DNA of 64,000 nucleotides, taken from positions 1-64,000 of the IMG/VR virus record IMGVR_UViG_3300033073_000243; one strand, 5' to 3'. The notes below the pieces were generated by a model, which was not told the DNA's origin, searched no databases, and saw only the letters and a program-made list of their open reading frames with translations. The stretch comes from a virus. Lineage: Duplodnaviria; Caudoviricetes. Position numbers and translations under genes: made by a program. Positions 27,679 through 64,000 of this stretch are shown piece after piece. The first letter of the stretch is position 1. Each line of letters begins with the position of its first letter.

Positions 27679-27681
27679 AGA

Positions 27682-28500: not shown

Positions 28501-28542
28501 CTAAATACATTTGTGACCCACCACATTAACTCGGAGAAAAAA

Positions 28543-32735: not shown

Positions 32736-33832
32736 GTTATCTATTTACAAGTGAGAGTGTTTCAGAAGGACATCCAGATAAGGTAGCTGATGCTATCAGT
32801 GATGCCGTTCTAGATTTAGTTATGTCCAAAGAAGATACTTCTTTGCGTTGTGCTTGCGAAACATTAGTAACAACTAACAGAGTTGTACTAGCAGGCGAAT
32901 ATAAAGGTATTCTACATGAAGAAGAAGTAGAAAGTGCAGTCCGTAAGGTCATTAAAGACATCGGATATGAGCAACAAGGATTTGATTGGCGCACTGCTGA
33001 AATCACAAACCTATTACACGAACAAAGTGCCGATATTGCTCTTGGCACTGATAATTTTGGTGCGGGCGATCAGGGTCTAATGTTCGGTTATGCATGTAAT
33101 GAGACTAGTGCTTATATGCCCAGCGCCATTTATTGGAGCCATCGTATTGTAGAAGAATTAGCTCGTTTACGCAAAGTAGGCACAATAGCTTGGTTAGAGC
33201 CCGATGCCAAGAGTCAAGTTACTTTTGAATATAACGATGATGGTACGCCAAAACGAATTGCAAAAGTTGTTTGCTCAACACAACACGCACCTGATGTTGA
33301 TTTGTATGCGTTGCGTTTGGGTATTACGGAAATTATTCGTGCAATTTTACCTAAAGAATATGTTGATACAAATACTGAGTTTTACATTAATCCTACTGGT
33401 CGTTTTGTTGTAGGCGGACCTGATGGGGATACTGGACTCACAGGCAGAAAGATTATTGTGGATACTTACGGTGGTTACAGTCCTCATGGCGGCGGCGCCT
33501 TCTCGGGAAAAGATCCAACTAAGGTAGACCGCAGTGCCGCATACATGATGCGTTACATTGCCAAGAACATTGTAGCAAGTGGTCGTGCATCTTGGGCTAC
33601 ATGTCAAATCAGTTATGCTATTGGTATGGCTGAACCTATGAGCTTCTATATCGAATGCGAAGATAAGGCCTTAGCTAGAGACTTAACAATGCTCATTCCA
33701 AAAGTAGTTGACCTTACACCAAAAGGGATTATTGACAAGTTCCAATTGTTCCGCCCTATCTATAGCAAGACAACTAACTATGGACACTTTGGCAAAGATT
33801 ACTTGCCATGGGAAAAAGTAGACTTATTTTAA
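32732..33832 (+). CDS. metK: S-adenosylmethionine synthetase
   Basis: FTSESVSEGHPDK, GAGDQGLMFGYA, GGPDGDTGLTGRKIIVDTYGG, GGGAFSGKDPTKVDRS and YGHFG motifs. Confidence 0.97.
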   Translation: MSYLFTSESVSEGHPDKVADAISDAVLDLVMSKEDTSLRCACETLVTTNRVVLAGEYKGILHEEEVESAVRKVIKDIGYEQQGFDWRTAEITNLLHEQSADIALGTDNFGAGDQGLMFGYACNETSAYMPSAIYWSHRIVEELARLRKVGTIAWLEPDAKSQVTFEYNDDGTPKRIAKVVCSTQHAPDVDLYALRLGITEIIRAILPKEYVDTNTEFYINPTGRFVVGGPDGDTGLTGRKIIVDTYGGYSPHGGGAFSGKDPTKVDRSAAYMMRYIAKNIVASGRASWATCQISYAIGMAEPMSFYIECEDKALARDLTMLIPKVVDLTPKGIIDKFQLFRPIYSKTTNYGHFGKDYLPWEKVDLF

Positions 33833-47191: not shown

Positions 47192-48087
47192 ACGACTTAC
47201 AATACATTTTAGACAACGGCGTTGAAAGTAACGACCGCACTGGCACAGGTACCAAAAGTATATTTGGTATGCAAACACGCTACAACTTAGAAAAAGGATT
47301 CCCTGCTGTTACTACAAAGAAACTAGCATGGAAAGCTGTTGTTAGTGAACTACTATGGTTCATAGAGGGAAGCGGAGATGAAAGACGACTCGCTGAGATA
47401 TTACATGGAACTCGTGACGCTAGCAAGTCAACGATATGGACGGCCAACGCTAGAGCAGATTATTGGACTCCAAAAGCAGAGTATCCCGGAGACCTCGGAC
47501 GGGTTTATGGAGTACAATGGCGCAAATGGCGCACACCAGTAGAACATAAAGCAACTACATTTAAAGATGACTTTGGCAGTACATACAGTAGAGCAGGTTA
47601 TGTCCACTTTAAAGAAGTCGATCAACTTTCAAACTTGATTGAAGGTATCAAATCTAAACCAGAAGATCGCAGACATATCTTATCCGCTTGGAATCCTGGC
47701 GAACTAGATAACATGGCATTACCTCCTTGCCATTCATTCGCACAGTTTTATGTTCGCAATGGAAAATTGAGCTGTCAAATGTATCAACGAAGTGCTGACT
47801 TCTTCTTGGGCATTCCTTTTAATATTGCCAGCTATAGTTTACTAACACATATGATTGCACAAGCTTGTGACTTGGGCGTAGGAGAATTCATCCATACTAT
47901 AGGTGATGCTCACATATACAACAACCATATAGAACAAGTTAAAGAACAACTTGCAAGAACACCATTAGCATTACCTACACTGAAACTTAATCCTAATATT
48001 AAGGATATCACAAAGTTTACCATGGAAGATATTGTGTTAGAGAACTACGAAAGCCTAGGCACTATTAAAGCGCCTATGGCTGTTTAA
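47176..48087 (+). CDS. thyA: Thymidylate synthase
   Basis: DRTGTGT, ELLWF, LPPCH, YQRSADFFLGIPFNIASY and GDAHIY motifs; uninterrupted by an intron. Confidence 0.97.
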   Translation: MQQYLNDLQYILDNGVESNDRTGTGTKSIFGMQTRYNLEKGFPAVTTKKLAWKAVVSELLWFIEGSGDERRLAEILHGTRDASKSTIWTANARADYWTPKAEYPGDLGRVYGVQWRKWRTPVEHKATTFKDDFGSTYSRAGYVHFKEVDQLSNLIEGIKSKPEDRRHILSAWNPGELDNMALPPCHSFAQFYVRNGKLSCQMYQRSADFFLGIPFNIASYSLLTHMIAQACDLGVGEFIHTIGDAHIYNNHIEQVKEQLARTPLALPTLKLNPNIKDITKFTMEDIVLENYESLGTIKAPMAV

Positions 48088-48641
48088 AACTGCAACGGAT
48101 CTAAACTTATTTCGTTAATGTGAAGTTCTGCAGGCTGCTCGATTATCCAATTGATATATTGAGCAGCCTTTTCTAATGACATTGTTTTTCTGTCAGGATG
48201 CTTTGCTTGCATGTTGCTTAATGTACCAAAACTAATTAAAGTAACACGAGGATTATTTCCCCACACACCGGTTAAAGTTAAACTGTTGCAATAATCACGC
48301 AAGGCTTTCTTCTCTGCATTGTATAACCAATCGGTTGCTTTCATAACTCTATCAGTTGTACTACCTACACAGATAATTAATGTGCGCTTGTTTTCGGCTT
48401 TCAACTTTTTATATGTTGCTTCTAACAATAGCGTTTGATTAAAACGCCACAAAGCACTACATATAATAACTAAATCGTACTCCAATGCCATTGTAGCGAA
48501 TTGCTGTTGGCACTCTGCTCTTGTCAAATCCATTGGATTAGGACTACTTCTACTTACAAAAGTGAGATCGTGTCCTTTTAGTTCACTAGCCAATGCATTA
48601 CCCAAACCATATGCTGGGTTTCCTGAGATTAATATTTTCAA
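48084..48641 (-). CDS. Short-chain dehydrogenase/reductase-like protein
   Basis: ILISGNPAYGLG Rossmann, IICVGS and YNAEK (YxxxK) motifs. Confidence 0.75.
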   Translation of the reverse strand: MKILISGNPAYGLGNALASELKGHDLTFVSRSSPNPMDLTRAECQQQFATMALEYDLVIICSALWRFNQTLLLEATYKKLKAENKRTLIICVGSTTDRVMKATDWLYNAEKKALRDYCNSLTLTGVWGNNPRVTLISFGTLSNMQAKHPDRKTMSLEKAAQYINWIIEQPAELHINEISLDPLQF

Positions 48642-49951
48642 TTGAATAGTCCTTTGTACTGCGGTGCAATGTCTAATATGCTATGTCCGCGAGCTTTATC
48701 TAAGTAAGTTGTGAACTTAACAAATTCTTCTAATTTGTCTCCATAGTCTGCAGAGTTAGTGTATTTTAGAATACCTCGTAAAATCGATTCTGCATTTTTT
48801 GCTATTTCTTCTGGATAGCTAACTTTAAAGTCTGCTATACATTTCTCGTAATACTCTGTTAACTCTTGTTTCAAGTTAGCAGGTAAGATGCGAACATTAA
48901 CTCTCTTTGGTCCATGCGCTACATGATGAGTTATTATTGGACGTTTCTTTGTGCTGTTAATTTTAACAAAGCCGCTGTCATCTAACTTCCATTTCATAAA
49001 TGTAGGAATGTGCCAAACATTGTATGCTGTTACAGTACAAGCCAACCATGCAATGATGTTAGAATTCTTTTGTGCGTATTCATCTAGCTTTTGTAAATTC
49101 TTATATGCCTGACTCCACTTTAGTGGCCAGCGTTGATATTCTACAGTTTCACCCATTCCATCCATACTTGCACCAACGCGAACTTGCTTAAACTGTGTCC
49201 ACATATCCAACACACGATTGGGCAAGTTAGCCATGTTTGTATTGTATTCAAGTATCATCTTTTTACTTTGACCCATGTCTATACATTTTTGCAAGAACTC
49301 GTAATGACGTTCAATCATCATTGGCTCGCCTCCTGCCATATAAACATGTTTCAAGTTAGGAATGTTATCTTCCATCTGTTGCCAAAAGCTTTCGCTATTG
49401 TGCCAATCATAATCAGATGTCGTTAAACGACCGTTTTCGTTACGAGTTAATTTAACTATGCCATGTGTGTCTTGATAATCTGTACTACCGTGATACTCTG
49501 TCCATTGTTCATACCAAGTATGACTATCAGTTGGTCCGCACATACGGCAAGCTAAGTTACATAAGTTACCAAAACGCAAATCATAATATTCTAACTTAGG
49601 TTCTGATATTGTGCCGTCTTCATTAGTAACATAACGGGCATCATCTAAACTAAATTTCCAATTTTCAAGCTCGTATTGTCTACGACTGTTTAATCCTGAT
49701 TCTTCTTCTTGTTTACAACGACCGCATTCCTGGCTCCACTCTCCTACTAACATGTTCTTGCGAACTTCTTTCATTAGAGTGGCATTACGAGCTTCTGACA
49801 TGTTGTCCCGGCCTGCATTGTAAGGAGACCCATCTTCGTGTCTAACAACACCTTGATTGTCTGTTACATTGGCTTGACAACAAATACGGATGTCGCCATT
49901 ATTTCTAACTGCTTGGAATATCCAGGGAATAGGACAAAAAGTATTACTCAT
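48638..49951 (-). CDS. Radical SAM protein 1 (N-terminal SPASM/Twitch-like Cys motif)
   Basis: FCPIPW...ICC; CNLACRMC; AGGEP; YNTN; GASMDG. Confidence 0.92.
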   Translation of the reverse strand: MSNTFCPIPWIFQAVRNNGDIRICCQANVTDNQGVVRHEDGSPYNAGRDNMSEARNATLMKEVRKNMLVGEWSQECGRCKQEEESGLNSRRQYELENWKFSLDDARYVTNEDGTISEPKLEYYDLRFGNLCNLACRMCGPTDSHTWYEQWTEYHGSTDYQDTHGIVKLTRNENGRLTTSDYDWHNSESFWQQMEDNIPNLKHVYMAGGEPMMIERHYEFLQKCIDMGQSKKMILEYNTNMANLPNRVLDMWTQFKQVRVGASMDGMGETVEYQRWPLKWSQAYKNLQKLDEYAQKNSNIIAWLACTVTAYNVWHIPTFMKWKLDDSGFVKINSTKKRPIITHHVAHGPKRVNVRILPANLKQELTEYYEKCIADFKVSYPEEIAKNAESILRGILKYTNSADYGDKLEEFVKFTTYLDKARGHSILDIAPQYKGLFN

Positions 49952-50723
49952 ATGCCTCCCAGATTAAATAATGTTCCAGCGTTTTCGATGGAATAACAAA
50001 GCTATCATGCGTTAGCATTAGCTCTCCTGAGAAATTATTATCTATAGCTTGTAGCAAAATATTTCCTAAAATTAAATTGTTTTCTTCCGATAAGTGATTG
50101 CATCTAATATCTCTTGCAACTCGTTTGTTTTCTGTATCTACGGTTGATAAATTATTATCAACATTTACATGACCTACTGCTACAAGCTCATTCATAGAAA
50201 CATCTACTAATGCTGCTTTCTCAGTTGAAGAGTTCGAGTCCACTAATATGATATTTTTATCAGAGCGAATCTTATCAATTAATGCTGCATTAGTTTCGGT
50301 TAGATAAGCAGTGTCCATCCATGAAGCCATTGCAAACTCTACATTTTCAACTACCTTTAATTTGAATTTTGTTCCGCTATTTGTTTCTTGATTAGCTAAG
50401 TGTATTTTAGCTAGCTCAACAGAACTAAGATTCACGAACCAATTCCTAAAAAGTAAAGTATCTTTTAATAAATTAAACAAGTGTTCGGAGAAGAATCTCT
50501 GCAATGTAGGAATTATAAAAATATTGTAATCATGTTTGTCTTTATTGTTGATATAATCTTTGTAGCATTGGTACGGGGAATTACCACATTCCCCGTAGTT
50601 GACTACATTATGTACTGTTTGTAAATGATGAACCCAGCTATAGCTCCCTGGTTTATCCAAGTTCATATTAGCATAACTATCGCCATAAACACCAACAGAT
50701 ATTTTATTCATATGTCTTATCAC
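49944..50723 (-). CDS. SGNH/GDSL-hydrolase-like protein 1
   Basis: YGDSYA (GDS) and C-terminal NHLS. Confidence 0.6.
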   Translation of the reverse strand: MIRHMNKISVGVYGDSYANMNLDKPGSYSWVHHLQTVHNVVNYGECGNSPYQCYKDYINNKDKHDYNIFIIPTLQRFFSEHLFNLLKDTLLFRNWFVNLSSVELAKIHLANQETNSGTKFKLKVVENVEFAMASWMDTAYLTETNAALIDKIRSDKNIILVDSNSSTEKAALVDVSMNELVAVGHVNVDNNLSTVDTENKRVARDIRCNHLSEENNLILGNILLQAIDNNFSGELMLTHDSFVIPSKTLEHYLIWEAYE

Positions 50724-51870
50724 CCGGGAATAAAGGAAGCTTGGTACCTGGCGCTCGTTTAGGAATCTTACTGTCTGCGCTACTTACGCAACTTGTTCCG
50801 CCGCAAGGCATTGGCTTGTCATATAACTTAAAGCCAGTTTCAATATGACCTAGCGGGACTTCGCTACAGCTATAACTTCTTTTAACTGTGCCATCGGGTT
50901 CACGAATAATAATACTGCGATAGCCACTGCTACATTCCCAACCATTGAAGTTGTTAAAGTTAAACGCATTGAATCGTTCTGCTTGGTCCATGAACCAAGG
51001 ATTACCTTCCTTATCAATAAATTCAATTTGGAAATGAGGATCTACTTCGACTTGCTTTTTACGGTTGGCATCTGTTTTGTCGATTAAATAAGTTGGCTTT
51101 GGACGTTGTACTAATCCAGCCTTCTTTGCTTTCTCTTCTGTAAATGCTCGCTGTGGCATCCCGTTATGCAACTTAGCTAACATGTCATCAGTGTAACCAT
51201 CTACTACACGACTAGCTGTTGGATCGCTTTGTGGCTTCAATGTGACATTAATGCCACGATCATGAAAGTAAAGAGCAAGATCATAAATTTCATAAAACTG
51301 TTCCGGAACCATAACTTGATTCACTGTTACTTGTGTATCATATTCTTGACACAATACCAGTTTGTCGGCAAACTCTTTAACTTTTGCATCAGTGTTTACA
51401 TGTTCACGATGGCAACTTGCTGTGATACTAGCGCGGTGGAAATTCTTAACTGCCGGTACATATTTTTCTTCAAACCACTTTAACGGACGACTCATGTTAC
51501 TTGTCATATGAACCGATGTATAGTTTGTATTTTGTACATCATCATTTAAGTAGTTTAAGATGTCAATGTAAGCAGGGTGGAATGTTGGTTCTCCTCCGCT
51601 TAGGCTAAAGTGATAGCTATTAAAGCCACGCTCACGAGCTTGGCGTTTAATCTCATCAACAGTCTTAAGCATTAAAGGAGTAGGGCGATGATCTTTTGTA
51701 TCGCTGCGAGCATATGGCCAGCAATAGCTACAGCGATAATTGCAGTAGCGTCCTAGTAACCACGACACAGTAAACATGTCACGGTATAGCATTGTTCGTT
51801 GCCCTACTCTAACTAAATCGTCGTAGGGAATTTTTGTAAAGTCGTATTGGCTTACTTTTAAATCACTCAT
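50704..51870 (-). CDS. Radical SAM protein 2 (C-terminal SPASM/Twitch-like)
   Basis: CNYRCSYC; SGGEPT; C-terminal C..G...SC...C...C..SAD; likely start 51870. Confidence 0.92.
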   Translation of the reverse strand: MSDLKVSQYDFTKIPYDDLVRVGQRTMLYRDMFTVSWLLGRYCNYRCSYCWPYARSDTKDHRPTPLMLKTVDEIKRQARERGFNSYHFSLSGGEPTFHPAYIDILNYLNDDVQNTNYTSVHMTSNMSRPLKWFEEKYVPAVKNFHRASITASCHREHVNTDAKVKEFADKLVLCQEYDTQVTVNQVMVPEQFYEIYDLALYFHDRGINVTLKPQSDPTASRVVDGYTDDMLAKLHNGMPQRAFTEEKAKKAGLVQRPKPTYLIDKTDANRKKQVEVDPHFQIEFIDKEGNPWFMDQAERFNAFNFNNFNGWECSSGYRSIIIREPDGTVKRSYSCSEVPLGHIETGFKLYDKPMPCGGTSCVSSADSKIPKRAPGTKLPLFPGDKTYE

Positions 51871-52096
51871 CTTGTTCGTATACCATTTTAATATCTTTGC
51901 CGGGACCAACTTCACTAGGCAGTCCGCCGTATTCTTTTATATACCATTCGATTGCCGCAACATACCAACCTTGGCTGTTATGTCTACTTGCTATATTGAA
52001 CTTGTAAATGTTATCGTTAGTTGCTGGCATTGTGCTAATAACACGAGCGGCTTCTAACTGTAATGTTCGCAAAGGTAAATCTTTTATGTCTGTCAT
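51863..52096 (-). CDS. Small hypothetical protein within the radical SAM cluster
   Basis: 77-aa ORF coupled at both ends. Confidence 0.65.
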   Translation of the reverse strand: MTDIKDLPLRTLQLEAARVISTMPATNDNIYKFNIASRHNSQGWYVAAIEWYIKEYGGLPSEVGPGKDIKMVYEQDE

Positions 52097-53289
52097 AGAT
52101 CTAAGTTATCCATTAATTTTAACAATGCATCGGTCTTTTTATATTTTTGCTTCTTCTCTAAAAATGCCAATGCCGCTTGTTTATAATCAGGGTTATAAGA
52201 AGTTCCTACTCTGTTTCGCATTTGATTTAAGTAATCAAGGAATTCTTGCTTCCTAACAAAATTTATACCTTCTGAATTGTTAATTGCCTTTTCTGCAAGG
52301 TCTATATATTGTACATAATCTTTAGGTAAATGAGCAATATCTAATTCGTCTGGCCAGCTGGTAAAGTTACCATACCAAGTAAATTCTTTTGTCGGTGCGT
52401 ATTTTCTAAACTGCTCATGTACCCAATCTATATATAAATGGAACGTCTTTAAACTAAAAATACTTGCCGCTGGGCTTAATACTATTAGTTCAGTCTTTGG
52501 ATGACTAATGTATTTTACAAAGTTACCAGTGAATCTCTCCCAACTTAATCCATGACGAATTAGTTCAGCATCTATACCAAAGCCTTCGTTGCTAATACCA
52601 ATTCCCCACGACAACTTACTAGTATCCATACGAGCAATGATCTTATCCATTAAGAATCTCTTGCTGTTAGCGTTAGTGCATATTTCTAAACGAATGTTTT
52701 TATGCGAAGTCTCTGCACATTCTTCTATGTAATCAACTAGTTCGTAGAAGCGTTCACTAGTTGTTGGCTCACCGCCAAGGAAAATAAAAATTGCTTGGTT
52801 ATTTGCACTTTGTTTATTGTTTAGGAAATCACGAATCCATTGTTTAAAAACAGTGTAGTCATTTTCTTTTGTCAAATCTTCGTAAGGTTCGTTTTGTTCT
52901 TGTGCGACTTTACTGCTACTCCACGAACTGCAATATAAACAACTCATATCACATGTTCTGTCTGTTTTAATTTCTACATAATAAACATGACGGTCATCAT
53001 TAAGAATATGTCTATTACTTTCTACAAAGGCGTCTTTCCAATTATTAGCCCAATCTCTGTATGCGCTGTTACCTTTGGCATAATCATTCCAGCAACTGGC
53101 ACAATCAGAATGTGCGATGTTCTGCAGACTTTGTGCCCTGCGTTCTTGTATTCGTGGACCGTTACTAATGAACTCGGTTGTGAGCGTTTCAGGGAAATCA
53201 TATGTTACTGCTTTACAGCAATGTTTTAATGTCCTTGACTCAAAATCGATATTGATATCCGTCCAAGTTTTTGAACAATATGTTTTCAT
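52093..53289 (-). CDS. Radical SAM protein 3
   Basis: YCSKTW...HCC; CDMSCLYC; LGGEPT; CTN. Confidence 0.9.
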   Translation of the reverse strand: MKTYCSKTWTDINIDFESRTLKHCCKAVTYDFPETLTTEFISNGPRIQERRAQSLQNIAHSDCASCWNDYAKGNSAYRDWANNWKDAFVESNRHILNDDRHVYYVEIKTDRTCDMSCLYCSSWSSSKVAQEQNEPYEDLTKENDYTVFKQWIRDFLNNKQSANNQAIFIFLGGEPTTSERFYELVDYIEECAETSHKNIRLEICTNANSKRFLMDKIIARMDTSKLSWGIGISNEGFGIDAELIRHGLSWERFTGNFVKYISHPKTELIVLSPAASIFSLKTFHLYIDWVHEQFRKYAPTKEFTWYGNFTSWPDELDIAHLPKDYVQYIDLAEKAINNSEGINFVRKQEFLDYLNQMRNRVGTSYNPDYKQAALAFLEKKQKYKKTDALLKLMDNLDL

Positions 53290-54014
53290 ATTTCAATAAT
53301 CATGCTTCTTTGTTTAGAATTTACAAAAAAGCTTTCTTCTCTTCCACGACGCTGATAATGAGTCACACCATTTAAGTAAGGCTCTTTTACTACATCGCTG
53401 TCACCTGCATATATGTCGATGATTTTTTGATCTTTAGGTCCTATGCACAAAACAACAATTGGCTCTATAAATTCTCCGTTCAATTTATCTTCAAATAAGT
53501 TTTTAAATTTTTCATTGGACATCATATCTTCAAGACCGCAAGCCACAAATGCTGTCCCGTAACCTAACTCTTCTGCTGTTAATTGAGCATAACTTGCACT
53601 AATCATAGCGTCACGAACACTGCTCTTAATCATTGCATATTTGTTAACAGAACTTGTTACTTCACTATAAGATCTATCGAAAATTTCAGTTCCGGTTTGT
53701 TCATTGACAGATAACATCTGATGCTCAGGAGCAGGATTGGCAACATATACCAAAACCAAAGGAGCCTTCACTTGCATCAAATATATAGTATCATCGGTTT
53801 CTTCATATAATGTTATATGATCGCATAGCTCCTTCTTTAGTTCATTGGCTTCTGCGGTTTCTCCTAATGCAAAGATTTTATAACCGTAAATCTTATTTTT
53901 ACTAGGAGCACGCCTTGCACTATCTAGTATAGTGGCTACATCATTTTCGGATACAGATCCTGACATTAGTCTTGTTGTGTGACGTTTATTGATTATGGAA
54001 TTAATTTTAGACAT
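53286..54014 (-). CDS. Nitroreductase family protein
   Basis: INKRHTTR, ARRAPSK and LTAEELGYGT motifs. Confidence 0.8.
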   Translation of the reverse strand: MSKINSIINKRHTTRLMSGSVSENDVATILDSARRAPSKNKIYGYKIFALGETAEANELKKELCDHITLYEETDDTIYLMQVKAPLVLVYVANPAPEHQMLSVNEQTGTEIFDRSYSEVTSSVNKYAMIKSSVRDAMISASYAQLTAEELGYGTAFVACGLEDMMSNEKFKNLFEDKLNGEFIEPIVVLCIGPKDQKIIDIYAGDSDVVKEPYLNGVTHYQRRGREESFFVNSKQRSMIIEI

Positions 54015-54037
54015 GTGAAATTTATTAAGTTAGTAGA

Positions 54038-54047
54038 TAAATATTTA
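54038..54047. promoter_or_regulatory. Palindromic TAAATATTTA, a candidate bidirectional late promoter
   Basis: Perfect 10-bp palindrome presenting TAAATA on both strands between divergent genes (54014 minus, 54080 plus). Confidence 0.5.
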
Positions 54048-54079
54048 TTAGTAACAACCATGAAGCATAGGAGACAAGC

Positions 54080-54823
54080 ATGAGCGATGACAGCGTACTA
54101 AATGAGTATGGGATCAGCGGTGAACCAATCGAATCATTTGTTAGACGAAATGATTTCCCAGCAAATATACATTACCCACAAGATTTACAAACAGGAATGG
54201 AAGTAAGACGAGATAGTCGTATTCCATTTTTACCAATCGATGATTGGATGCAAACCGAAGATTGGGCAGGTATGCATGAAGAAGCAAAGCGTCTTAGCAA
54301 ACATTATATTCAACATAGAAGTCATGAGTCTCATAAAGGTTGGAGCAGTTTGGTAATTCACGGTCTAAGTAGCGTTCACACAGAAAGCAGTCATACATAC
54401 GGCTTTACAGATGAAAATGCTCCTTGGCGTTGGACTGACGTTTCGGATTGGTGTCCACTTATTACTAACTTTATCAAAACCAAAGTCAACTACAAAAAGT
54501 TCTTTAGAGTTCGTATTATGAAACTTGCACCAGGCGGCTGGGTTATCCCTCATAAGGATAGTTTAACACAACAAGAAAATCATATCGGTCCATTAAATAT
54601 TGCGTTGAATCATCCAGACGGCTGTAAGTTTATTATGGACGGAGTTGGATGTTTACCATGGACGCAAGGACGAGCAATTACATTGAACCTATTTAATGTA
54701 CACGCTGTTTATAACGATAGCAACGAAGATAGATATCATATGATTGTGCATGGTTGGGCTCCTGATCACTGGAGCGATTTAGTCTACAACAATTATAATA
54801 ATTGGAAGAAGGTGTATGCGTAA
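54080..54823 (+). CDS. Aspartyl/asparaginyl beta-hydroxylase-like 2OG-Fe(II) oxygenase
   Basis: RVRIMKLAPGGWVIPHKD and HAVYNDSNEDRYHMIVHG motifs. Confidence 0.85.
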   Translation: MSDDSVLNEYGISGEPIESFVRRNDFPANIHYPQDLQTGMEVRRDSRIPFLPIDDWMQTEDWAGMHEEAKRLSKHYIQHRSHESHKGWSSLVIHGLSSVHTESSHTYGFTDENAPWRWTDVSDWCPLITNFIKTKVNYKKFFRVRIMKLAPGGWVIPHKDSLTQQENHIGPLNIALNHPDGCKFIMDGVGCLPWTQGRAITLNLFNVHAVYNDSNEDRYHMIVHGWAPDHWSDLVYNNYNNWKKVYA

Positions 54824-56303: not shown

Positions 56304-56304
56304 C

Positions 56305-56330
56305 AAAATAGGACCAATTGGTCCTATTTT
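56305..56330. terminator. Perfect 26-bp palindrome, bidirectional terminator
   Basis: AAAATAGGACCAATTGGTCCTATTTT between convergent stops. Confidence 0.8.
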
Positions 56331-57598
56331 TATTTCACTATACTTGCTAACTCTGGAAACACTGTGCTAAAATCAGTATCAGCATATTTGTCCATAAACT
56401 TGATAAACTCTACAGTGTCGTTTAACTCATTCGAGTAATCTTCAGCGTTCATGTAGTTAATGGCATAATCACCATAGCGTATAATTCTACGCTTTTGTTG
56501 CTTAACTAATTTTTCATTTTGCCATTGACTATGTTGCCATAACGACATATCAGTGTCTATTGTTTCCTTAAACGCATTCCATTCTGCTGTTAACTTTTGC
56601 TTAATATCAGCTGGTAAAACTTTAGGGTTAATTGCCTTTGGATATTGCACAATGCTAGTATGGAACAACCCGCCTGCATTGTTAACAAATCGAACAATGT
56701 CTACCAGTCTAGTTATATTGTAAATGCTAATAGTAGTTGTAAGACTCATTTCAACATTCTTTAAAGCGTGAAGCTTTTGAACATTTTCTACGATCTTACC
56801 AATGTCCCCGTTAGTTCTAAAATAACTAAATGTGTTATCATCACCGTCTATACTTACACGCAAAATGATCTTTTTAAATTTAGGCCAATGATCCAATACA
56901 CTATAATTACCAATACCTAACGCTGTTAGATTACTGTTATAGCTTAATGTAATATTAGAAGCATAAGGCTCCATTGCTTCTATCATTTCCCAATGGCGTT
57001 TCTGTTGTAATGGTTCGCCGCCTGCTACTAGCACTTCCTTTAAGTAAGGAATAGCTGTTTTGAATTGTTCAAAGCTTTCTTCTGGTAAGTTGATATGCTT
57101 CTTCTCTAAACGTCCTGCTCCCCACTTAACAAAGAACTCTTTAACTTCAGGGTCTTTAAACGCCAATACTTCCCATTGACTACTGTAAGTAGGACTACAA
57201 TGTCTGCATCTTAAATTACAAGTATTGTCAAAACGAATCTCTATGCTTTGAGGTTCATAAGGCATACTGTAATCATCTGCAACTTTGCTAACAACTTCGT
57301 CAAAGTCAATCTTATATGATTGGCTGTATGTTTCATTGCAAGTATCACGAGTACTTGCAACTCCGCTATCTTCAAAATCCCAGCAACTACGACATCCGTT
57401 TGGACGCTCACCATTTAATAGTGCGCGGCGTAATTCTTTCGTTTCATCGCTGTTCCAAATGTCTTGTAGACTTTGTTTACGATAATCACCTATGCGATCA
57501 GGATATCTCCAACAAGCGGCAACTTTGCCTTCTTGTTTAATATTCTGATGTATAAATGGCATTATACAAAATGTCTTACTTCTTTCTGTAGTCATCAA
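56330..57598 (-). CDS. Radical SAM protein 4
   Basis: FCIMPF...ACW; CNLRCRHC; AGGEP; YNSN; SIDG. Confidence 0.92.
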   Translation of the reverse strand: MMTTERSKTFCIMPFIHQNIKQEGKVAACWRYPDRIGDYRKQSLQDIWNSDETKELRRALLNGERPNGCRSCWDFEDSGVASTRDTCNETYSQSYKIDFDEVVSKVADDYSMPYEPQSIEIRFDNTCNLRCRHCSPTYSSQWEVLAFKDPEVKEFFVKWGAGRLEKKHINLPEESFEQFKTAIPYLKEVLVAGGEPLQQKRHWEMIEAMEPYASNITLSYNSNLTALGIGNYSVLDHWPKFKKIILRVSIDGDDNTFSYFRTNGDIGKIVENVQKLHALKNVEMSLTTTISIYNITRLVDIVRFVNNAGGLFHTSIVQYPKAINPKVLPADIKQKLTAEWNAFKETIDTDMSLWQHSQWQNEKLVKQQKRRIIRYGDYAINYMNAEDYSNELNDTVEFIKFMDKYADTDFSTVFPELASIVK

Positions 57599-59069
57599 AT
57601 GCCTTTGCTATGTCAGGGAATGTTTCTTCAAAACTTTCTTCGCGCAACTCGTCTAAGTCTTTTGTGTAGATTAATAACTTCTCGACATCGTTTGGTACTG
57701 GTTTGTATTTCTTGAAAATAGAAATCAACTTTTCTAACTTGACACGCATCTCTGCAATAAACCAATGCTCGTAGTCATCAAACGGCAAATGTTGGTACAT
57801 TACTTTAGTTTGACGATCTACAATGTCTAATAATTCTTTTGGTAACTGAGCTTCGTATAGCCCATTTACATTTACTTCTCTTAGTAGATCAAGACATAAC
57901 AATCTATTTCTAAACTTCAACTCGCTTACAGCAACAAGAATGTCGCAAATTGCTTTTTCTTTTATTTCCCAGGGCAACTGTATCATGGACAAATGACTTG
58001 GATATGTTAACACATTGAACTTAAACTTGCCGGCGGGCAATACTTCATTGCTCTTAGCAGTTTTATTAATGTTAACACTTGCAGCCATCCAATGTTCATT
58101 AACGCTTTCATTCTTAGCAATCCACCAATCGAACATTTCTTTAATAGAACTAACATTATATACATTCAATGTTGGATTCCAAATGACGTTAATTGTTTCG
58201 CGTCGGCTTTCTTCTAACTCTAACCATGCCGTGACTGCATTATCAACAACATCCCATTTACTAGGATTGCGAATGTATTCATTAACTTTACCTACTCCAT
58301 CAATACTTAAAGAAAGAACAATCCGCTTAAACTGCTTTAGTCTCTCTAAATACTTTTCGCCGGGAATCCAACTACAGTTAGTGAAGATATCTAGTTTAAT
58401 GTTCTTAGCTACATCGATTTCGATTAGCATATCCATTAACTTAATAAAGTCAGGATGTACCATTGGTTCACCGCCAGTGAACTTGATTTCTTCTACATTA
58501 ACAAAATCTTCCTTTTTCCAGTTAAAAGGAATGTTCATTGTTTTCTGTCCATGACTGTTAAGATACAGTTCACGCTCTTTGTGTCTACCGCTAGCAACTA
58601 ACGCATTTTCATCTTCCCACCATGTGCTAGATAAGTCAGCATTACATGTACGACATTTTAGATTACAATAATTTCCAAATGTCATTTCAAGATATTTAAT
58701 TGTAGGTTTAGTTACATCGAAGGCAGGAGCCGAATTGTTTTTATCATTGCGTAGTTTATTTTCGGATGTACGCATCGAGAAACCATTGGTTGCTTCCTCT
58801 TGATAACACTTACTGCATCCAGCAACTGTCTCATTGTTTAGTAATTTTTGTCGTATGCTTTCCCAAAGTTCGCTGTTCTGCCCTTCCGATAAAGAAGTTC
58901 CTTTAGTGATGTTGTAGTGGTCAAAGACATATTTCTTTTCTGTTTCGCTGTCTAAGTATTCTTTGTTATGGAATTCAAAACGACAGCATGGCTTCATAGC
59001 ACCGCTTGGTTTTACTTGCATGTGTACAAACGGTAATATGCAAAATGTTGTTCTTTTTTTCTCGCTCAT
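57576..59069 (-). CDS. Radical SAM protein 5
   Basis: FCILPF...PCC; CNLKCRTC; TGGEP; FTN; SIDG. Confidence 0.92.
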   Translation of the reverse strand: MSEKKRTTFCILPFVHMQVKPSGAMKPCCRFEFHNKEYLDSETEKKYVFDHYNITKGTSLSEGQNSELWESIRQKLLNNETVAGCSKCYQEEATNGFSMRTSENKLRNDKNNSAPAFDVTKPTIKYLEMTFGNYCNLKCRTCNADLSSTWWEDENALVASGRHKERELYLNSHGQKTMNIPFNWKKEDFVNVEEIKFTGGEPMVHPDFIKLMDMLIEIDVAKNIKLDIFTNCSWIPGEKYLERLKQFKRIVLSLSIDGVGKVNEYIRNPSKWDVVDNAVTAWLELEESRRETINVIWNPTLNVYNVSSIKEMFDWWIAKNESVNEHWMAASVNINKTAKSNEVLPAGKFKFNVLTYPSHLSMIQLPWEIKEKAICDILVAVSELKFRNRLLCLDLLREVNVNGLYEAQLPKELLDIVDRQTKVMYQHLPFDDYEHWFIAEMRVKLEKLISIFKKYKPVPNDVEKLLIYTKDLDELREESFEETFPDIAKAFDDYRKK

Positions 59070-60127
59070 GACTTTAAAATGTTCTCTTTGTTTAAATTCT
59101 CTGTATAATATAATGTGGTGTTTTCTTCATATCCGCATATCATTAAGCAAGTTAGAAGATTTCCATTCTCGATTGTATCATTCCATTTATCACTTATATT
59201 ATACATCTTTTCAATAGCGTAGTCTACAGTTTTGGTGTTCAAGTCAAAATCATCTAACTTATGCAATTGATTGAACTGCAATGCCCCTGAACTATCATGT
59301 GTATATGTTCCAAGATAACAACATGGAAGCAATAAGCCACTTGCTGTTAGATATACTTCCTGTCTCTCTAAACTTTTACAACTAACCTTATGCTCATTGA
59401 GCCAAGTAAACTTTTCTAAATTAACCTTGGTTATAGATATCGGTATATGTTCAAGCTTACCGACATTGGAATGCTTGTACATATCTTGTTCGGGTGGCTC
59501 CAAAGTAAAACGATGTTCACCGTCTATCATTACCTTGTGCTCGTACTTTCCCCTGAACTTTTGGGTTACTTTGATTCTGAACTTTGCACCAACTTCTTCT
59601 GCTATTCGCTTTGCTTCTTCGACTTGATGCTCATTGTGTTTGAACACAATAAAATTCCACTGAGCGGCCCCGCCTGAGCTAATGTAAGATTTTAAGTTAG
59701 CTAATACTTTGTCATACCGAACACCGATTCTATACTTGTCTAGCGTTTCGTTATCTGTGCCATCTATTGCAAAGTTGATTAGAACATTTGGATGTGCTAA
59801 CTTTGCCCACCAATCTTCACCCCTATATCCGCCATTAGTGTCAATACTAACGCTCTTACATCCGTTGTTAAGCAAATAATTAACAAACTCTGGCAAGTCT
59901 TTATTAAGGCAAGGATCTCCGTATACTCCACTAAAATAAACATGATCCATTTGGCTTGCAAACTCTGGCGTAAACAACTTGTAAAATACGTCAGGTGATA
60001 AATCGCCTTCTTGTAAATCAGGTTGAACAAAGCCAGTGGATGTGAATCTACTGCACATAGGGCAACGACTGTTGCACCTACTACTGGCTTCGACGTGGAC
60101 CATTTTAATTTTTTGTTTTTCAATCAT
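59066..60127 (-). CDS. Radical SAM protein 6 (C-terminal Twitch-like)
   Basis: CNSRCPMC; GVYGDP; DTNG; IDG; C-terminal C...LLPCC...C..IC. Confidence 0.92.
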   Translation of the reverse strand: MIEKQKIKMVHVEASSRCNSRCPMCSRFTSTGFVQPDLQEGDLSPDVFYKLFTPEFASQMDHVYFSGVYGDPCLNKDLPEFVNYLLNNGCKSVSIDTNGGYRGEDWWAKLAHPNVLINFAIDGTDNETLDKYRIGVRYDKVLANLKSYISSGGAAQWNFIVFKHNEHQVEEAKRIAEEVGAKFRIKVTQKFRGKYEHKVMIDGEHRFTLEPPEQDMYKHSNVGKLEHIPISITKVNLEKFTWLNEHKVSCKSLERQEVYLTASGLLLPCCYLGTYTHDSSGALQFNQLHKLDDFDLNTKTVDYAIEKMYNISDKWNDTIENGNLLTCLMICGYEENTTLYYTENLNKENILKS

Positions 60128-60948
60128 TTTTTAATTGTTGTCATCATTGCAAGGCCGCACTTCATTGTAACTTTATTCTTTTGAAAGTTAATACCGCTAT
60201 GTGCTTGGCAACGGTCAAATACAATTATTCCGCCACGCTTCCAGTTATACACTGCTTCTAATTCAAACCCGTCCAACCATTCACGCTTATAATGAGAAAA
60301 ATACTTATTATAAGTTTCATCATCTATTGTACGCTTATTCCAATCTACATCCCATGGCGTTCCATCTCTGTGATAACATGGCATACCACGATAGTCGCTA
60401 ATTGTGTAGAACACATTTGTTTCGTATTGCGGGCTATTCTTTGCAAAGTTTGTTCCATACATTAGGAAACGGTTCTTGAAGATTGCTGTGCCACACATAG
60501 GATGATCTTCTTCTTTGTTAGTGTGACATACCCATAATGGAATAATAAACTGCTTACCAGGAATACTATCACTGTCTTTTAGTGTATTAGGATTACCAGT
60601 ATCGATATGCAAGTTATATGGCGTTGCTGTTAATAAGAAGTTGCCTTCCCATATTGTTTCATTTTCCAATTCTGGTATAACTGATTTAAGTTTGTCAAAG
60701 AATTTGTTTTGTATTACTCTATTATCAACATTGAAGTGTAGCGTACCATTCTTCTTAACACGACGAGATTGATGCTGTCTATGCATGAAATCTTCTAGCC
60801 ATAACAATTCGTCTTCTGTAAACACATTGTCAACAGAATAACTACTGTCACTCCATGTGCTCATCCATTTTGGATGCTCGATTGGATCAACAGGTATAAA
60901 CTCTTTAACTAAATTGTCTCCGGGTACATATTCTAAATTATGTTCCAT
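60124..60948 (-). CDS. 2OG-Fe(II) oxygenase-like protein
   Basis: YNLHIDT (HxD) and IVFDRCQAHSG (distal His) motifs. Confidence 0.65.
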   Translation of the reverse strand: MEHNLEYVPGDNLVKEFIPVDPIEHPKWMSTWSDSSYSVDNVFTEDELLWLEDFMHRQHQSRRVKKNGTLHFNVDNRVIQNKFFDKLKSVIPELENETIWEGNFLLTATPYNLHIDTGNPNTLKDSDSIPGKQFIIPLWVCHTNKEEDHPMCGTAIFKNRFLMYGTNFAKNSPQYETNVFYTISDYRGMPCYHRDGTPWDVDWNKRTIDDETYNKYFSHYKREWLDGFELEAVYNWKRGGIIVFDRCQAHSGINFQKNKVTMKCGLAMMTTIKK

Positions 60949-61660
60949 CTTTAATCCCTTTCATTTTTTCGTATATCTTTTCCGCTAAAAATTCGTTCCC
61001 GTCGTGATCCAAATGATTACAATCTATTTCCGGATGCAAATCTTTACCAACTTTATATCCAAACTTCTTGGCATATTGTATAATGCCACCAAAATCAATT
61101 AGAGGCAGATTGTAGTCTTTATTAACAATCCCCTGTGGCGCTAACATGTTCACAAAATAGTGCTCAATGCCATAATGCTTTAAGAATATATGTAATGTCA
61201 ATAAATCCAAATTAATCTTTTCAGTTTCGTAGGTATCGTTATAAAACACACCATAATGAACATCTAAATAAGTTTGTACATCTTTCATAGGTACACGACA
61301 CCACGGTCCTACAATGTTAACGATATAACTTTTATTTGCAAAAAAATCTACAGCCGGTCCTTCTATTTGATGTTCTGTAACAAGTTCTAATCTACTTAAA
61401 TCTGTTATACCAAAGAATACAATAAGATTACTTGCATTTTCTAAGTTGTCTAAAATGTATTCTTTAATAACTCTAAACGATCTTGCATTAGATCCGCCCG
61501 GTGCTGCTAAGTTTACAACATTATTAGTTGGAAAATATTTGTTTCCAAGCTTCTTAACCCATGAACGCTGATTGCATTCTTCTTTTGCAAACATATCATT
61601 GGAATTTAGATAACTCCCAAATACATGACTACACCCGACTGCAACTATTGTTTTAGACAT
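60938..61660 (-). CDS. SGNH/GDSL-hydrolase-like protein 2
   Basis: VGCSHVFG, NLAAPGGSN and C-terminal NHLDHDG motifs. Confidence 0.65.
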   Translation of the reverse strand: MSKTIVAVGCSHVFGSYLNSNDMFAKEECNQRSWVKKLGNKYFPTNNVVNLAAPGGSNARSFRVIKEYILDNLENASNLIVFFGITDLSRLELVTEHQIEGPAVDFFANKSYIVNIVGPWCRVPMKDVQTYLDVHYGVFYNDTYETEKINLDLLTLHIFLKHYGIEHYFVNMLAPQGIVNKDYNLPLIDFGGIIQYAKKFGYKVGKDLHPEIDCNHLDHDGNEFLAEKIYEKMKGIKDGT

Positions 61661-63069
61661 TAGATATCCTTAAAAATATCTTTCATCTCCGGGAATGTTT
61701 CATAGAAGTTAGTGCCACGCTGTGCATCTAGTAATTCAATGTACTCTTTCATTTCTGGTAAGCGTACACTCCAGTCTTCACTCTTAGCAAAACGAACCAT
61801 GCCTCTTAAACGATCTATTCCGTAGTTAGCACCCTCGAACATTTGTTGAGTTACTTTGCCTTTATGCCATTCAGGAACACCTAACTGCCAATTCTCTTTC
61901 CACCATGGAATGAATTCTTCATACTTGGCTTCGATTTCATCCTTGAACCATGCTGGTAATATCTTAACATTGAGATGCGGCGGATGGTAAACAAAGTGAT
62001 AGTTAATGCCGCCGGCGCCAAATGGCCACATGTTTACTTTCTTAAACCCGTGTTCTAGTTTCCACTTCAAGAACTCTGGAATGTAATAAATGTTTAATGC
62101 TTGAACTGCACAAGCGATTGTAACTTCTACATTATCAGAGGTTTCTTCGTCTAACTGTCTAAATGCTTCTAAGTTTCGTTCCCACTTACTTGGATAACGA
62201 ATATAATCATTGCGTTCTCCAACTGCATCAACACTATAGTGATAACGAACAAGTTTGAAGTGTTTCCACAACTCAAACAAGTCTTCACGCCATTCTACAC
62301 CATTACTGTTATAACGAATTTCCATATCTTTGGCATAGCCGCGCTTAATACACTCTTCTAAAATCTCATAGTGTTCTTCAATGATTAGCGGTTCTCCTCC
62401 TGCAAAATACAATTGCTTCATGTTAGGGATCTGTTCCCATAACTGTTCCCAGAACTTAGGATTGTTCTTATGCCAATTGTAACTTGCCCCGTTTTCTTGT
62501 CCTTTGTTACCCCATTGCATACTGTCTTTTAAAACAGGATGTTGGACTTTTGGATACATCTTTTGCCACTCTGGAATCCATAAGCTACTGTCATGAGGGC
62601 TACACATTACACAAGCTAAATTACACTTGGTGCCAAAACGCATATCAATATAAGCAATATGAGGAGGTACGCTTCCATCTGGTTCAGTATCTGCAATTAG
62701 CTTATCTAAATCAACACGCTGACGCCAATATGCTGTTTCCCATTGACGTTTACTTTTGTGTCCTTCTCTTTCCTCTTTGTAGCATTTGATACAACTAGGT
62801 GGCTCGGAACCCGCTAACATGTGTAAGCGGTTGTTCTTCATGTAATCGTTATTCCAACTTGTTAAAAAGTCAGTGTGGTTTAGGTTAGCAGGTTTGCCGT
62901 CTGCGTTTTTGAGAACGCCAACTTCGCCGCCATAAACTTTATCGTTGGTAGGACCAACACTACTGGCATTAGCTGTACAACATACACGCATGTGTCCATT
63001 TGGTCTTGTGCTTAAATGTACCCATGGTAAGATACAAAATGTTTTGCTTGGTAAGTTATCTTCTGTCAT
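61660..63069 (-). CDS. Radical SAM protein 7
   Basis: FCILPW...VCC; CNLACVMC; AGGEP; YNSN; SVD. Confidence 0.93.
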   Translation of the reverse strand: MTEDNLPSKTFCILPWVHLSTRPNGHMRVCCTANASSVGPTNDKVYGGEVGVLKNADGKPANLNHTDFLTSWNNDYMKNNRLHMLAGSEPPSCIKCYKEEREGHKSKRQWETAYWRQRVDLDKLIADTEPDGSVPPHIAYIDMRFGTKCNLACVMCSPHDSSLWIPEWQKMYPKVQHPVLKDSMQWGNKGQENGASYNWHKNNPKFWEQLWEQIPNMKQLYFAGGEPLIIEEHYEILEECIKRGYAKDMEIRYNSNGVEWREDLFELWKHFKLVRYHYSVDAVGERNDYIRYPSKWERNLEAFRQLDEETSDNVEVTIACAVQALNIYYIPEFLKWKLEHGFKKVNMWPFGAGGINYHFVYHPPHLNVKILPAWFKDEIEAKYEEFIPWWKENWQLGVPEWHKGKVTQQMFEGANYGIDRLRGMVRFAKSEDWSVRLPEMKEYIELLDAQRGTNFYETFPEMKDIFKDI

Positions 63070-63073
63070 ATTG

Positions 63074-63826
63074 TTATTTACTGTTTATTATCTGCTTAAA
63101 ATGTTCCGTTATGAATTCAGCTAAATCTTCATGAGACTCTTGTGACCAATGATCTCCTGCCAATTGGTAACCTCTTTTCTTTATGATATTATTTACATTG
63201 ATAGTTGGTAAGGATTTTGCTTGTTCTATTAAGAAATGATATCTAGGTTCGTTTTCTAACTCTATATATCGTTCTTCTATTTCTTTTCCAAATTCAAGAA
63301 ATGTTACAGGTATATTAAGCGTTTTTAAATGCGATGTTAGCATAATTAAATCCATAAGATCCTCAACTGCCCATTGTATTGGATTGTGTGATAGTACTTT
63401 TTCTTTTAAGTAATCTTTCCATATAAAATGAGGATGTATTACTGCTACTTGAATATCAGTAAAATTACCGTTTGGATATATAAACAACTCCCTAAACACC
63501 GGAGGAACTTGAAAATATATTGCATCAATAATTTGTCCCGATGCTAATACTTCTAACAGTCTAAGCATATTTGCTCTAACTGCGCCGCCGTTCTCTGCAA
63601 GATTGTGCGTTGTTATTTCATCGGTATTCATTAATGCTGGATAAGCTAACTCTTTGTTATCCTTAATATATGCTTGTAAAAATTCATGATTCGAAAAAGC
63701 TTTTGATCTTCTGTTGTAATACGCATCTCTGTCAGGTTTATCCGTAAACTTCCACGGAAACCATTTGGCATCAGAAAGCTCGTCACCTGCTGTGAAACTG
63801 CAACCAAAGAAATAAATGTTCTTCAT
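63074..63826 (-). CDS. SGNH/GDSL-hydrolase-like protein 3
   Basis: FGCSFTAG, NLAENGG and C-terminal DHWS motifs. Confidence 0.65.
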   Translation of the reverse strand: MKNIYFFGCSFTAGDELSDAKWFPWKFTDKPDRDAYYNRRSKAFSNHEFLQAYIKDNKELAYPALMNTDEITTHNLAENGGAVRANMLRLLEVLASGQIIDAIYFQVPPVFRELFIYPNGNFTDIQVAVIHPHFIWKDYLKEKVLSHNPIQWAVEDLMDLIMLTSHLKTLNIPVTFLEFGKEIEERYIELENEPRYHFLIEQAKSLPTINVNNIIKKRGYQLAGDHWSQESHEDLAEFITEHFKQIINSK

Positions 63827-63999
63827 AAAACTTTATATCCCCCAATTGGTAGCTTTTCTAATTTCTTAACACTACACACCTCTGTACACCTATGTATGCG
63901 ATCAGTTTTGCCGGTACCATGAACATTACTGCTCCAGCTTTCTACTAAGTCATTTGAATAGAAAGAATGACTTAACACTTCAGCTACACTGTGCTTTTC
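63823..63999 (-). CDS. Partial CDS (C-terminus), probably another radical SAM/SPASM protein
   Basis: EKHSVAEVLSHSFYSNDLVESW...HRCTEVCS...KVL*; terminal CxxxC resembles the end of rSAM 6; ATGA-coupled to the next gene. Confidence 0.45.
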   Translation of the reverse strand, partial: EKHSVAEVLSHSFYSNDLVESWSSNVHGTGKTDRIHRCTEVCSVKKLEKLPIGGYKVL

Positions 64000-64000
64000 T

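Follow-up and report, generated by a model that had tools for sequence, protein, structure and literature searches.

A radical SAM gene island in a jumbo-phage fragment, most likely a virus-encoded glycosylation machinery built around NF033640-type enzymes

Introduction

Why would a tailed virus carry a dozen radical S-adenosylmethionine (SAM) enzyme genes side by side? The question is raised by IMG/VR virus record IMGVR_UViG_3300033073_000243 (Duplodnaviria; Caudoviricetes), a linear contig of 84,599 bp. The initial annotation covered its first 64 kb (positions 1 to 64,000, hereafter the window) and described an island of radical SAM genes and putative tailoring enzymes, thought to decorate a virion structure, the DNA or the host envelope. 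We find that the island most likely represents a virus-encoded glycosylation machinery built around enzymes of the NF033640 type, a family without a characterised member, and that its most likely activity is the tailoring of a sugar. It would be a late, cytoplasmic jumbo-phage pathway that makes, transfers and edits an unusual sugar, the product most likely being a glycan on fibre-type virion proteins; we give this reading a probability of roughly 0.55. Its glycan part is reasonably supported, and the acceptor and each chemical step are inferred.

Extent and organisation of the island

The completeness of the record was estimated at 22% (CheckV). The record encodes a family-B DNA polymerase with 43-50% identity to the enzymes of jumbo phages Phosso, Atu_ph07 and the RaK2 group, a likeness by which it is taken to be a fragment of a jumbo phage with a full genome of roughly 350-400 kb. 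A megablast search of the 16-kb stretch that ends the window against deposited phage records gave zero matches, and so returned no near relative.

The island had been placed at 48084-64000, an extent of 16 kb that proved too small: the minus-strand block runs past the window to contig position 84,518 and comprises about 36 kb with 12 radical SAM genes. The first description was correct as a whole and understated, as the window holds seven intact radical SAM genes and an eighth at its edge, suspected earlier, which is a genuine member (63823-64884). The reported stop/start overlaps also stand, since gene junctions overlap or span at most 6 nt save for a divergent gap (54014/54080) and a convergent gap (56303/56330). 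All 37 island proteins lack a transmembrane-like segment and are predicted to be soluble. The island adjoins thyA and DHFR.

Radical SAM enzymes

The CX3CX2C motif is intact in all 12 radical SAM genes of the contig, each of which matches Pfam PF04055 or NCBIfam NF033640 (N_Twi_rSAM, twitch domain-containing radical SAM protein), a curated whole-protein hidden Markov model with a cut-off of 170 bits. The seven in-window genes listed as intact in Table 1 all match PF04055 (E 1e-5 to 1e-13), with 48638-49951 at 26.3 bits under the gathering cut-off of 29.5. Three groups can be distinguished: N_Twi (seven genes), group A (59066, 63823 and 67063; genes are named here by their first coordinate where this suffices) and group B (50704 and its paralog 64877-65839). 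Six N_Twi genes of the contig score 430, 384, 356, 333, 292 and 240 bits against NF033640, and the seventh (52093-53289) scores 165.9. The two architectures noted before are upheld: five in-window genes carry an N-terminal four-Cys module (C-x17-18-C(C)-x38-60-CxxC) before the radical SAM core, and two carry C-terminal Cys clusters, which in group A have the form C-x18-CC-x56-70-CxxxC. Across 100 N_Twi sequences, C12, C30, C93, C96 and a GGE motif are invariant. Paralogous pairs share only 21-34% identity.

SPASM and twitch domains are placed C-terminal to the barrel in the literature (PMC9477430). In 56330-57598, the Pfam SPASM match lies at residues 11-73, N-terminal of Radical_SAM at 125-303. 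Alignment of the N_Twi N-terminal module with the C-terminal module of group A (59066-60127) by hhalign gave a probability of 77.7% (E 1.9e-5), which indicates one auxiliary-cluster module at opposite protein ends in the two groups. The N-terminal-cluster architecture is that of the already curated family NF033640, with which the contig genes share the four invariant N-terminal Cys residues, CX3CX2C and GGE. What differs here is that seven anciently diverged members stand in one phage operon together with two further radical SAM subfamilies. Literature searches found no paper characterising N-terminal-twitch radical SAM enzymes or phage radical SAM arrays.

The AlphaFold2 (AF2) model of 61660-63069 has a mean confidence (pLDDT) of 91.9. 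A fold search with the N_Twi core returned anSME (Z 12.2), CteB (11.8), BlsE (11.8), viperin (11.3), SkfB (11.2), DesII (9.3) and AprD4 (8.1), with SuiB likewise among the matches. BlsE, DesII and AprD4 also combine a partial TIM-barrel radical SAM core with one auxiliary 4Fe-4S module, and BtrN is another twitch/auxiliary-cluster enzyme of sugar/nucleoside pathways. The auxiliary module of BlsE, DesII and AprD4 is C-terminal, however, whereas that of N_Twi is N-terminal; sequence similarity to them is negligible, and peptide-modifying enzymes score alike. A phmmer search of PDB with three of the radical SAM genes left two without a match and returned for the third only similarity to the N-terminus of NifB. 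Group B genes show weak N-terminal matches to viperin, MoaA and QueE models.

Conservation of the gene cluster

Metagenomes contain over 4000 protein clusters homologous to the core gene 61660-63069, more than 100 of them at 68% identity or more, and some homologs lie on contigs of up to 271 kb that carry at least 10 radical SAM genes. A tblastn search of phage records with the core radical SAM gene found three distant records only. In 80 IMG/VR loci, co-occurring orthologs were counted if they had at least 40% identity and lay no farther than 10 kb from the core gene: 75 of the loci have one of 67063, 50 one of 68910, 42 one of 63823, 35 one of 50704 and 26 one of the carbamoyltransferase gene. 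Close relatives keep the order aldolase, carbamoyltransferase, three GT-A genes (see below), radical SAM group A, and, further along, another group A gene followed by N_Twi. The ratio of nonsynonymous to synonymous substitution (dN/dS) is 0.03-0.15 wherever dS is unsaturated. With intact genes, selection and retained order, the locus is a coherent and conserved cluster, as had been supposed, and not a degenerate one.

The seven phage copies occupy seven separate supported clades in a tree of 100 N_Twi sequences; every clade holds orthologs from other phages, and four hold bacterial members. The enzymes of the array are therefore old and distinct, and did not arise by recent expansion. A marine multi-radical-SAM array also includes a 964-aa gene with a weak Radical_SAM match (L005:11382-14276, minus strand), which may be a fused form.

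Bacterial homologs

Of 201 Bdellovibrionota genomes sampled, 45 have matches to NF033640 that exceed its cut-off, located on Mb-sized contigs, and none of 14 control genomes has one. The search scored up to eight matches per genome, a number that many of the 45 reach. Clustered Bdellovibrionota orthologs are 56-64% identical to 61660, 54-59% to 50704, 43-47% to 67063 and 37-44% to the GT-A family; the identities of 43-64% between phage and bacterial core genes suggest gene exchange. When genome contigs were scanned with a single protein as query, only four short contigs of metagenome-assembled genomes were recovered.

The most frequent Pfam families among 91 neighbouring proteins are GT2 (seven), Polysacc_synt_2 (three), NAD epimerase/dehydratase (three), Asp_Arg_Hydrox (three) and, as single matches, Bac_transf. 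One contig of 2.9 Mb has four GT2 genes and a PMT_2 (GT-C) gene on the flanks of the array. The position of the bacterial arrays amid glycan genes is the strongest evidence, drawn from gene neighbourhoods, that the N_Twi family may act on glycans. Chromosomal arrays of eight or more N_Twi genes beside GT2, PMT_2 and flavin amine-oxidase genes were seen at 2.38-2.40 Mb of G028:C1, at 1.41-1.43 Mb of G166:C1 and in others (loci L094-L099).

Sugar-activating and sugar-transferring genes

It had been remarked that the window has neither a scaffold synthase nor an obvious precursor peptide, and that the sequence beyond 64 kb should be inspected for glycosyltransferase (GT) or fibre genes. No precursor was found, but three GT-A-like genes, a nucleotidyltransferase/kinase fusion and a carbamoyltransferase lie just past the window, and fibre-type virion genes follow at the end of the contig.

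The GT-A-like paralogs are 68234-68935, 68910-69920 and the C-terminal third of 69892-71679. An AF2 model of 68910-69920 (pLDDT 88) shows a GT-A fold at residues 20-194, with B4GALNT1 (Z 10.3), STIV A197 (9.9), SpsA (9.0), SunS (9.0) and PBCV-1 A64R (8.3) among its structural neighbours (VIA). In 54 members of this family the DxD motif has the consensus VVDAD, with D84 conserved in at least 90% and D86 invariant. The Pfam Glycos_transf_2 match is below threshold (E 0.011; 16.1 bits, cut-off 23.3), and the GT2 neighbour score in Protein Atlas is only 0.86; a Protein Atlas query with the 595-aa GT-A fusion returned only unnamed viral clusters. More distant phages have the GT-A-like domain inside proteins of about 1000-1200 aa and not as three separate genes (L056:1213-4446, L081:1276-4944, L080:31-3303 and L079:3925-7101).

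The carbamoyltransferase gene (NodU/TobZ-type, 71676-73148) matches Carbam_trans_N (E 3e-38) and Carbam_trans_C (E 2.6e-52). It scores 141 bits against the NodU model, far below the equivalog cut-off of 1000, so that membership of the NodU/CmcH/TobZ family is indicated and not orthology. A sugar-1-phosphate nucleotidyltransferase is fused to an APH-type kinase (75270-76868), and further genes past 64 kb specify GatZ/KbaZ-type aldolase-like, shikimate-dehydrogenase-like, SnoaL-like and cupin proteins. The contig also carries, at 79727-81348 (minus strand), two paralogs, each some 270 aa long, which share the motif (C)xxGQPRTW at the N-terminus and match DUF7796 only weakly.

Late-promoter-like motifs and linkage to virion genes

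The contig has 59 copies of the hexamer TAAATA where 121 would be expected, a depletion of about two-fold. The T4 late-promoter core ATAAATA occurs 11 times, 10 of them just upstream of a start codon. There are four full TATAAATA sites, three of them on the island coding strand, and two of these three lie in its only sizeable intergenic gaps. ATAAATA at 82763 heads a 26-kb operon, before the N_Twi gene 81323-82732, downstream of which 25 genes follow without a gap of more than 6 nt as far as 56330; the motif at 84529 precedes the fibre-type gene 83961-84518. In relatives, ATAAATA likewise stands before the first genes of the island operon. Late expression, proposed at the outset from two TAAATA boxes, is therefore probable, given T4-type motifs that head the operons in a position kept in relatives, and the ATAAATA set is a candidate late-promoter set of this phage lineage. 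One of the two boxes, the palindrome at 54038, was retained as the bidirectional site ATAAATATTTAT, located 34-43 nt (from 54037/54048) ahead of the start codons at 54014 and 54080. The other, at 63075, was rejected as merely a TAA stop codon followed by ATA. Scans for sigma-70 promoters and intrinsic terminators stayed at chance level. Further ATAAATA motifs before start codons were noted on the plus strand at 1479, 11300, 16173, 35863, 39563 and 45483.

The two genes at the head of the island, 83961-84518 and 82828-83925, are of virion (fibre) type, the latter by its N-terminus (phrog_14394, phrog_15511). Their homologs head the island in all five related records, where they come after giant virion structural proteins (phrog_10938). 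Because the island follows fibre-type virion genes both here and in these five relatives, a virion structure is the best supported of the three targets first put forward, and DNA and the host envelope are less supported. The 82828-83925 homologs of the five relatives end in a tail-fibre-type domain (phrog_19602), which in the present contig is replaced by a low-complexity tail of 190 aa rich in Pro, Thr, Ala, Val and Ser. At the equivalent place in one relative lies a separate gene for a Pro/Thr-rich protein of 468 aa. The 80 related loci contain no Pro/Thr-rich open reading frame (ORF) within 10 kb of the core gene, and a general link between the island and mucin-like proteins is accordingly not supported. 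A tail similar to that of 82828-83925 (...TTASPVVGTSPSPIY) was observed in the gene truncated by the contig end.

Accessory genes

Features of the window are listed in Table 1. Among the oxidative enzymes reported earlier, the flavin nitroreductase and one of two 2-oxoglutarate (2OG)-Fe(II) oxygenases (54080-54823) pass their Pfam cut-offs. The second oxygenase and the short-chain dehydrogenase/reductase (SDR) are supported at the level of motifs; the former has an ortholog 90% identical in one relative, and the latter is 59-66% identical to its orthologs in related islands. Orthologs of the 495-aa protein 54816-56303 are 48-62% identical in relatives.

The three SGNH-like proteins do each abut a radical SAM gene, as noted before, and have a GDS/GCS block-I motif and a C-terminal His motif. 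A weak Pfam match is seen for 60938 only, and DUF6071 (PF19547) scores are 17.8 bits or less in all three (cut-off 27). Two proteins past the window exceed that cut-off (78028-78834, 68 bits; 78831-79730, 57 bits), and four further SGNH-like proteins, one of them beyond the window, are called by motif.

The 77-aa ORF 51863-52096 has orthologs in 42 of the 80 related loci. It was considered as a precursor peptide and rejected: conservation over its entire length and the lack of Cys point to a folded partner protein.

The metK gene lies outside the island. Another stretch of the plus strand (21900-29300) carries genes for a Gfo/Idh/MocA oxidoreductase, a zinc alcohol dehydrogenase-like protein, a UDP-glucose/GDP-mannose dehydrogenase and GTP cyclohydrolase I.

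Table 1. Features of the window, in order of position on the contig.
Feature	Position	Strand	Evidence and remarks
SAM synthetase MetK, outside the island	32732..33832	+	Three S-AdoMet synthetase domains, E 1e-33 to 1e-57
Small Rossmann/SDR-like protein	48084..48641	-	Last gene of the 54-48 kb sub-operon; adh_short E 0.09
N_Twi radical SAM, intact	48638..49951	-	NF033640 384 bits; CNLACRMC; N-terminal C6/C24/C76/C79; dN/dS 0.047
SGNH-like protein	49944..50723	-	Motif only: N-terminal GDS block, C-terminal CNH block; without family match
Group B radical SAM, intact, C-terminal Cys cluster, conserved core	50704..51915	-	PF04055 E 4e-13; dN/dS 0.032
77-aa conserved accessory protein	51863..52096	-	dN/dS 0.033; Cys-free
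Divergent N_Twi-type radical SAM, intact	52093..53289	-	NF033640 165.9 bits, just below 170; motifs intact
Nitroreductase-family flavoprotein	53286..54014	-	PF00881 25.2 bits (cut-off 23.5)
Bidirectional late-promoter-like palindrome	54037..54048	.	ATAAATATTTAT; ATAAATA on both strands, would serve both divergent sub-operons
Asp/Arg beta-hydroxylase-type 2OG-Fe(II) oxygenase	54080..54823	+	PF05118 E 2.5e-11
495-aa protein	54816..56303	+	Without family match
N_Twi radical SAM, intact, final gene of the long operon	56330..57598	-	NF033640 333 bits
N_Twi radical SAM, intact	57576..59069	-	NF033640 292 bits
Group A radical SAM, intact, C-terminal twitch-like module	59066..60127	-	PF04055 E 1.5e-11; C250/C269/C270/C327/C331
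Possible second 2OG-type oxygenase	60124..60948	-	HxD...H, motif level only; without family match
SGNH/DUF6071-like protein	60938..61660	-	Weak DUF6071/GDSL matches, E 3e-3; paralog 78028-78834
N_Twi radical SAM, intact, most conserved core gene	61660..63069	-	NF033640 430 bits
SGNH-like protein	63074..63826	-	Motif only: N-terminal FFGCSFTAGDEL block; without family match
Group A radical SAM cut by the window edge	63823..64000	-	Full gene 63823-64884; PF04055 match; CNALCLGC

Proposed pathway and alternative explanations

In the proposed pathway, the aldolase, dehydrogenase, cupin and kinase-nucleotidyltransferase genes would yield a nucleoside diphosphate (NDP)-sugar from central metabolites. 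The GT-A enzymes would attach the sugar to its acceptor, for which the Pro/Thr-rich tail of 82828-83925, the fibre-like protein, is a possibility. The radical SAM enzymes, each of a separate old subfamily, would then carry out oxygen-independent hydrogen abstraction at different positions of the sugar or glycan, with epimerisation, oxidation, deoxygenation and the formation of C-C bonds or C-methyl groups as possible outcomes. Carbamoyl and acyl groups would be added or removed afterwards, and the oxygenases and SGNH-type acyl hydrolases or transferases may share in this editing. It is possible that the phage MetK feeds SAM to the 12 radical SAM enzymes, and also to QueE should the phage encode it.

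A bolder form of this pathway is put forward tentatively: the seven N_Twi subfamilies and the two other radical SAM groups might constitute an undescribed assembly line for radical editing of carbohydrates or glycoproteins that builds a fibre coat. Every enzyme would remove hydrogen from a site of its own, either on a glycan bound to the virion or on the NDP-sugar from which that glycan is made, so that sugars could be epimerised, deoxygenated, C-branched or cross-linked into forms without a known biosynthetic route. Such a coat might resist host glycosidases and proteases, and its chemistry would be common to the surface glycans of predatory Bdellovibrionota.

Several observations weigh against a glycan on virion fibres. 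The N_Twi fold, as modelled, is equally close to peptide-modifying enzymes (anSME, CteB, SkfB) and to sugar/nucleotide enzymes (BlsE, viperin), and with no winner in the fold search the choice between a sugar and a peptide substrate is not settled by fold. The GT-A genes were assigned by predicted fold and DxD motif, and this fold is common to nucleotidyltransferases, which score Z 8-9 against the 68910-69920 model. The Pro/Thr-rich tail is absent from the five relatives and so cannot be a general acceptor. Late timing is read from a motif, and the SGNH-like, SDR-like and second oxygenase genes of the window are called at motif level. Finally, NF033640 is a curated sequence model, and for it and the other two radical SAM groups substrate, product and acceptor are all predicted here.

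Two alternatives keep the enzymes but change their target. The modified sugar may enter the lipopolysaccharide (LPS), capsule or protein-glycosylation route of the host during infection, where it could block superinfection or keep progeny from being trapped on debris. The Bac_transf, PMT_2 and GT2 genes beside the Bdellovibrionota arrays are typical of surface glycans, and marine myophages carry LPS-type genes and radical SAM cassettes in host-recognition clusters (PMC7029224), both of which agree with envelope remodelling. We consider it unlikely, however, as no island protein has a membrane segment, and the island therefore lacks a flippase, polymerase, initiating transferase or GT-C enzyme; moreover, a role in assembly accords better with the late-promoter motifs and with the orientation shared with virion genes. 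Slightly less probable still is direct modification of a protein by the radical SAM enzymes (epimerisation, cross-linking or C-methylation), in the manner of RiPPs (peptides made by the ribosome and modified after translation), the sugar genes being a separate add-on. The fibre-like protein or its Pro/Thr/Ala/Val-rich tail would be an example of a target, and the adjoining fibre-type genes, one with the 190-aa low-complexity tail, agree with this, as does the activity of Asp/Arg-hydroxylase-type 2OG hydroxylases on proteins and the fact that anSME, CteB, SkfB and SuiB match the N_Twi fold as well as any sugar enzyme. Against it, domain scans of the island genes found no RRE/PqqD domain, leader-bearing precursor, protease or exporter; the sole small conserved ORF is conserved throughout and Cys-free; every match to NCBIfam peptide-maturase models was far under its cut-off; the bacterial arrays lie amid glycan genes; and the five relatives lack the low-complexity tail.

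Hypermodification of the phage DNA, with sugars attached to the bases or radical SAM enzymes acting on them, is improbable. The island abuts thyA and DHFR, the models weakly matched by group B (viperin, MoaA, QueE) represent enzymes that act on nucleotides, and phages are described as glycosylating DNA with diverse glycans (Pyle et al., as cited in PMC12619734). Yet a separate candidate deazapurine/sugar locus with FolE, UDP-sugar dehydrogenase and oxidoreductases is found on the plus strand at 21-32 kb, and the island stands on the opposite strand and comes after virion genes and motifs of the late type. It showed no domain for DNA binding or base flipping, and its bacterial homologs lie in polysaccharide clusters. 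The least probable of the four is a diffusible metabolite of aminoglycoside or cyclitol type made during infection, even though the combination of twitch radical SAM, TobZ/NodU carbamoyltransferase, shikimate-dehydrogenase-like, aldolase, kinase and nucleotidyltransferase genes recalls aminoglycoside/aminocyclitol clusters. An aminotransferase, a cyclase (2-deoxy-scyllo-inosose synthase type), a resistance gene and an exporter were not found, the three GT-A paralogs and the fibre-gene linkage point to a macromolecular acceptor, and late expression in a lytic phage would leave a secreted product little time.

Comparison with known systems

Glycosylation of virions by viral enzymes has precedents. 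Mycobacteriophage capsids and tail tubes are described as carrying O-glycans, placed at the C-termini of their structural proteins (Freeman 2023, as cited in PMC12619734), and chloroviruses and mimiviruses have virus-encoded capsid and fibril glycans (PMC9614988). As in the island, the viral GTs of these systems are encoded beside structural genes and are cytoplasmic; the giant viruses also have sugar-nucleotide genes, and the chlorovirus capsid GT A64R is a structural neighbour of the island GT-A model. The island differs in its radical SAM enzymes, none of which are reported there, and in that virion glycosylation is here predicted from genes.

The statement that no phage pathway of this kind has been characterised still holds, but phage radical SAM arrays had been remarked upon before, in 2010 and in 2020. 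Campylobacter phages CP220 and CPt10 carry 11 and 12 radical SAM genes, called 'highly unusual' and located partly in an exchangeable module (Timms 2010, PMC2853527), and pelagimyophages have radical SAM cassettes in a host-recognition cluster next to tail-fibre genes (PMC7029224). These are likewise lytic myophages with many radical SAM genes, for which a benefit to host metabolism or no function was proposed (PMC2853527; PMC7029224). A tblastn search with the core N_Twi gene (E 1e-5) did not return CP220 or CPt10, and close homology to them is accordingly not supported.

A smaller counterpart is found in Ralstonia phage RsoM2USA, where genes 199-203 specify a DUF6071-like protein, an N_Twi enzyme, two further DUF6071-like proteins and a carbamoyltransferase. 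The N_Twi protein is 36% identical to 81323-82732 and the carbamoyltransferase 48% identical to 71676-73148. In contrast to the island, RsoM2USA has a single radical SAM gene and no GT-A trio in the 19 kb inspected, and all of these genes are annotated as hypothetical. As RsoM2USA is culturable and represents a minimal version, the question is open to laboratory testing.

Phage biology seldom takes radical SAM enzymes into account, yet jumbo phages from many environments repeatedly carry islands with at least 10 of them. Should the product be a virion glycan, phage glycosylation would gain a large, oxygen-independent sugar-editing repertoire, with a bearing on host recognition, phage stability and the evasion of immune and defence systems, and a first function would be provided for the curated NF033640 family, which is abundant in Bdellovibrionota.

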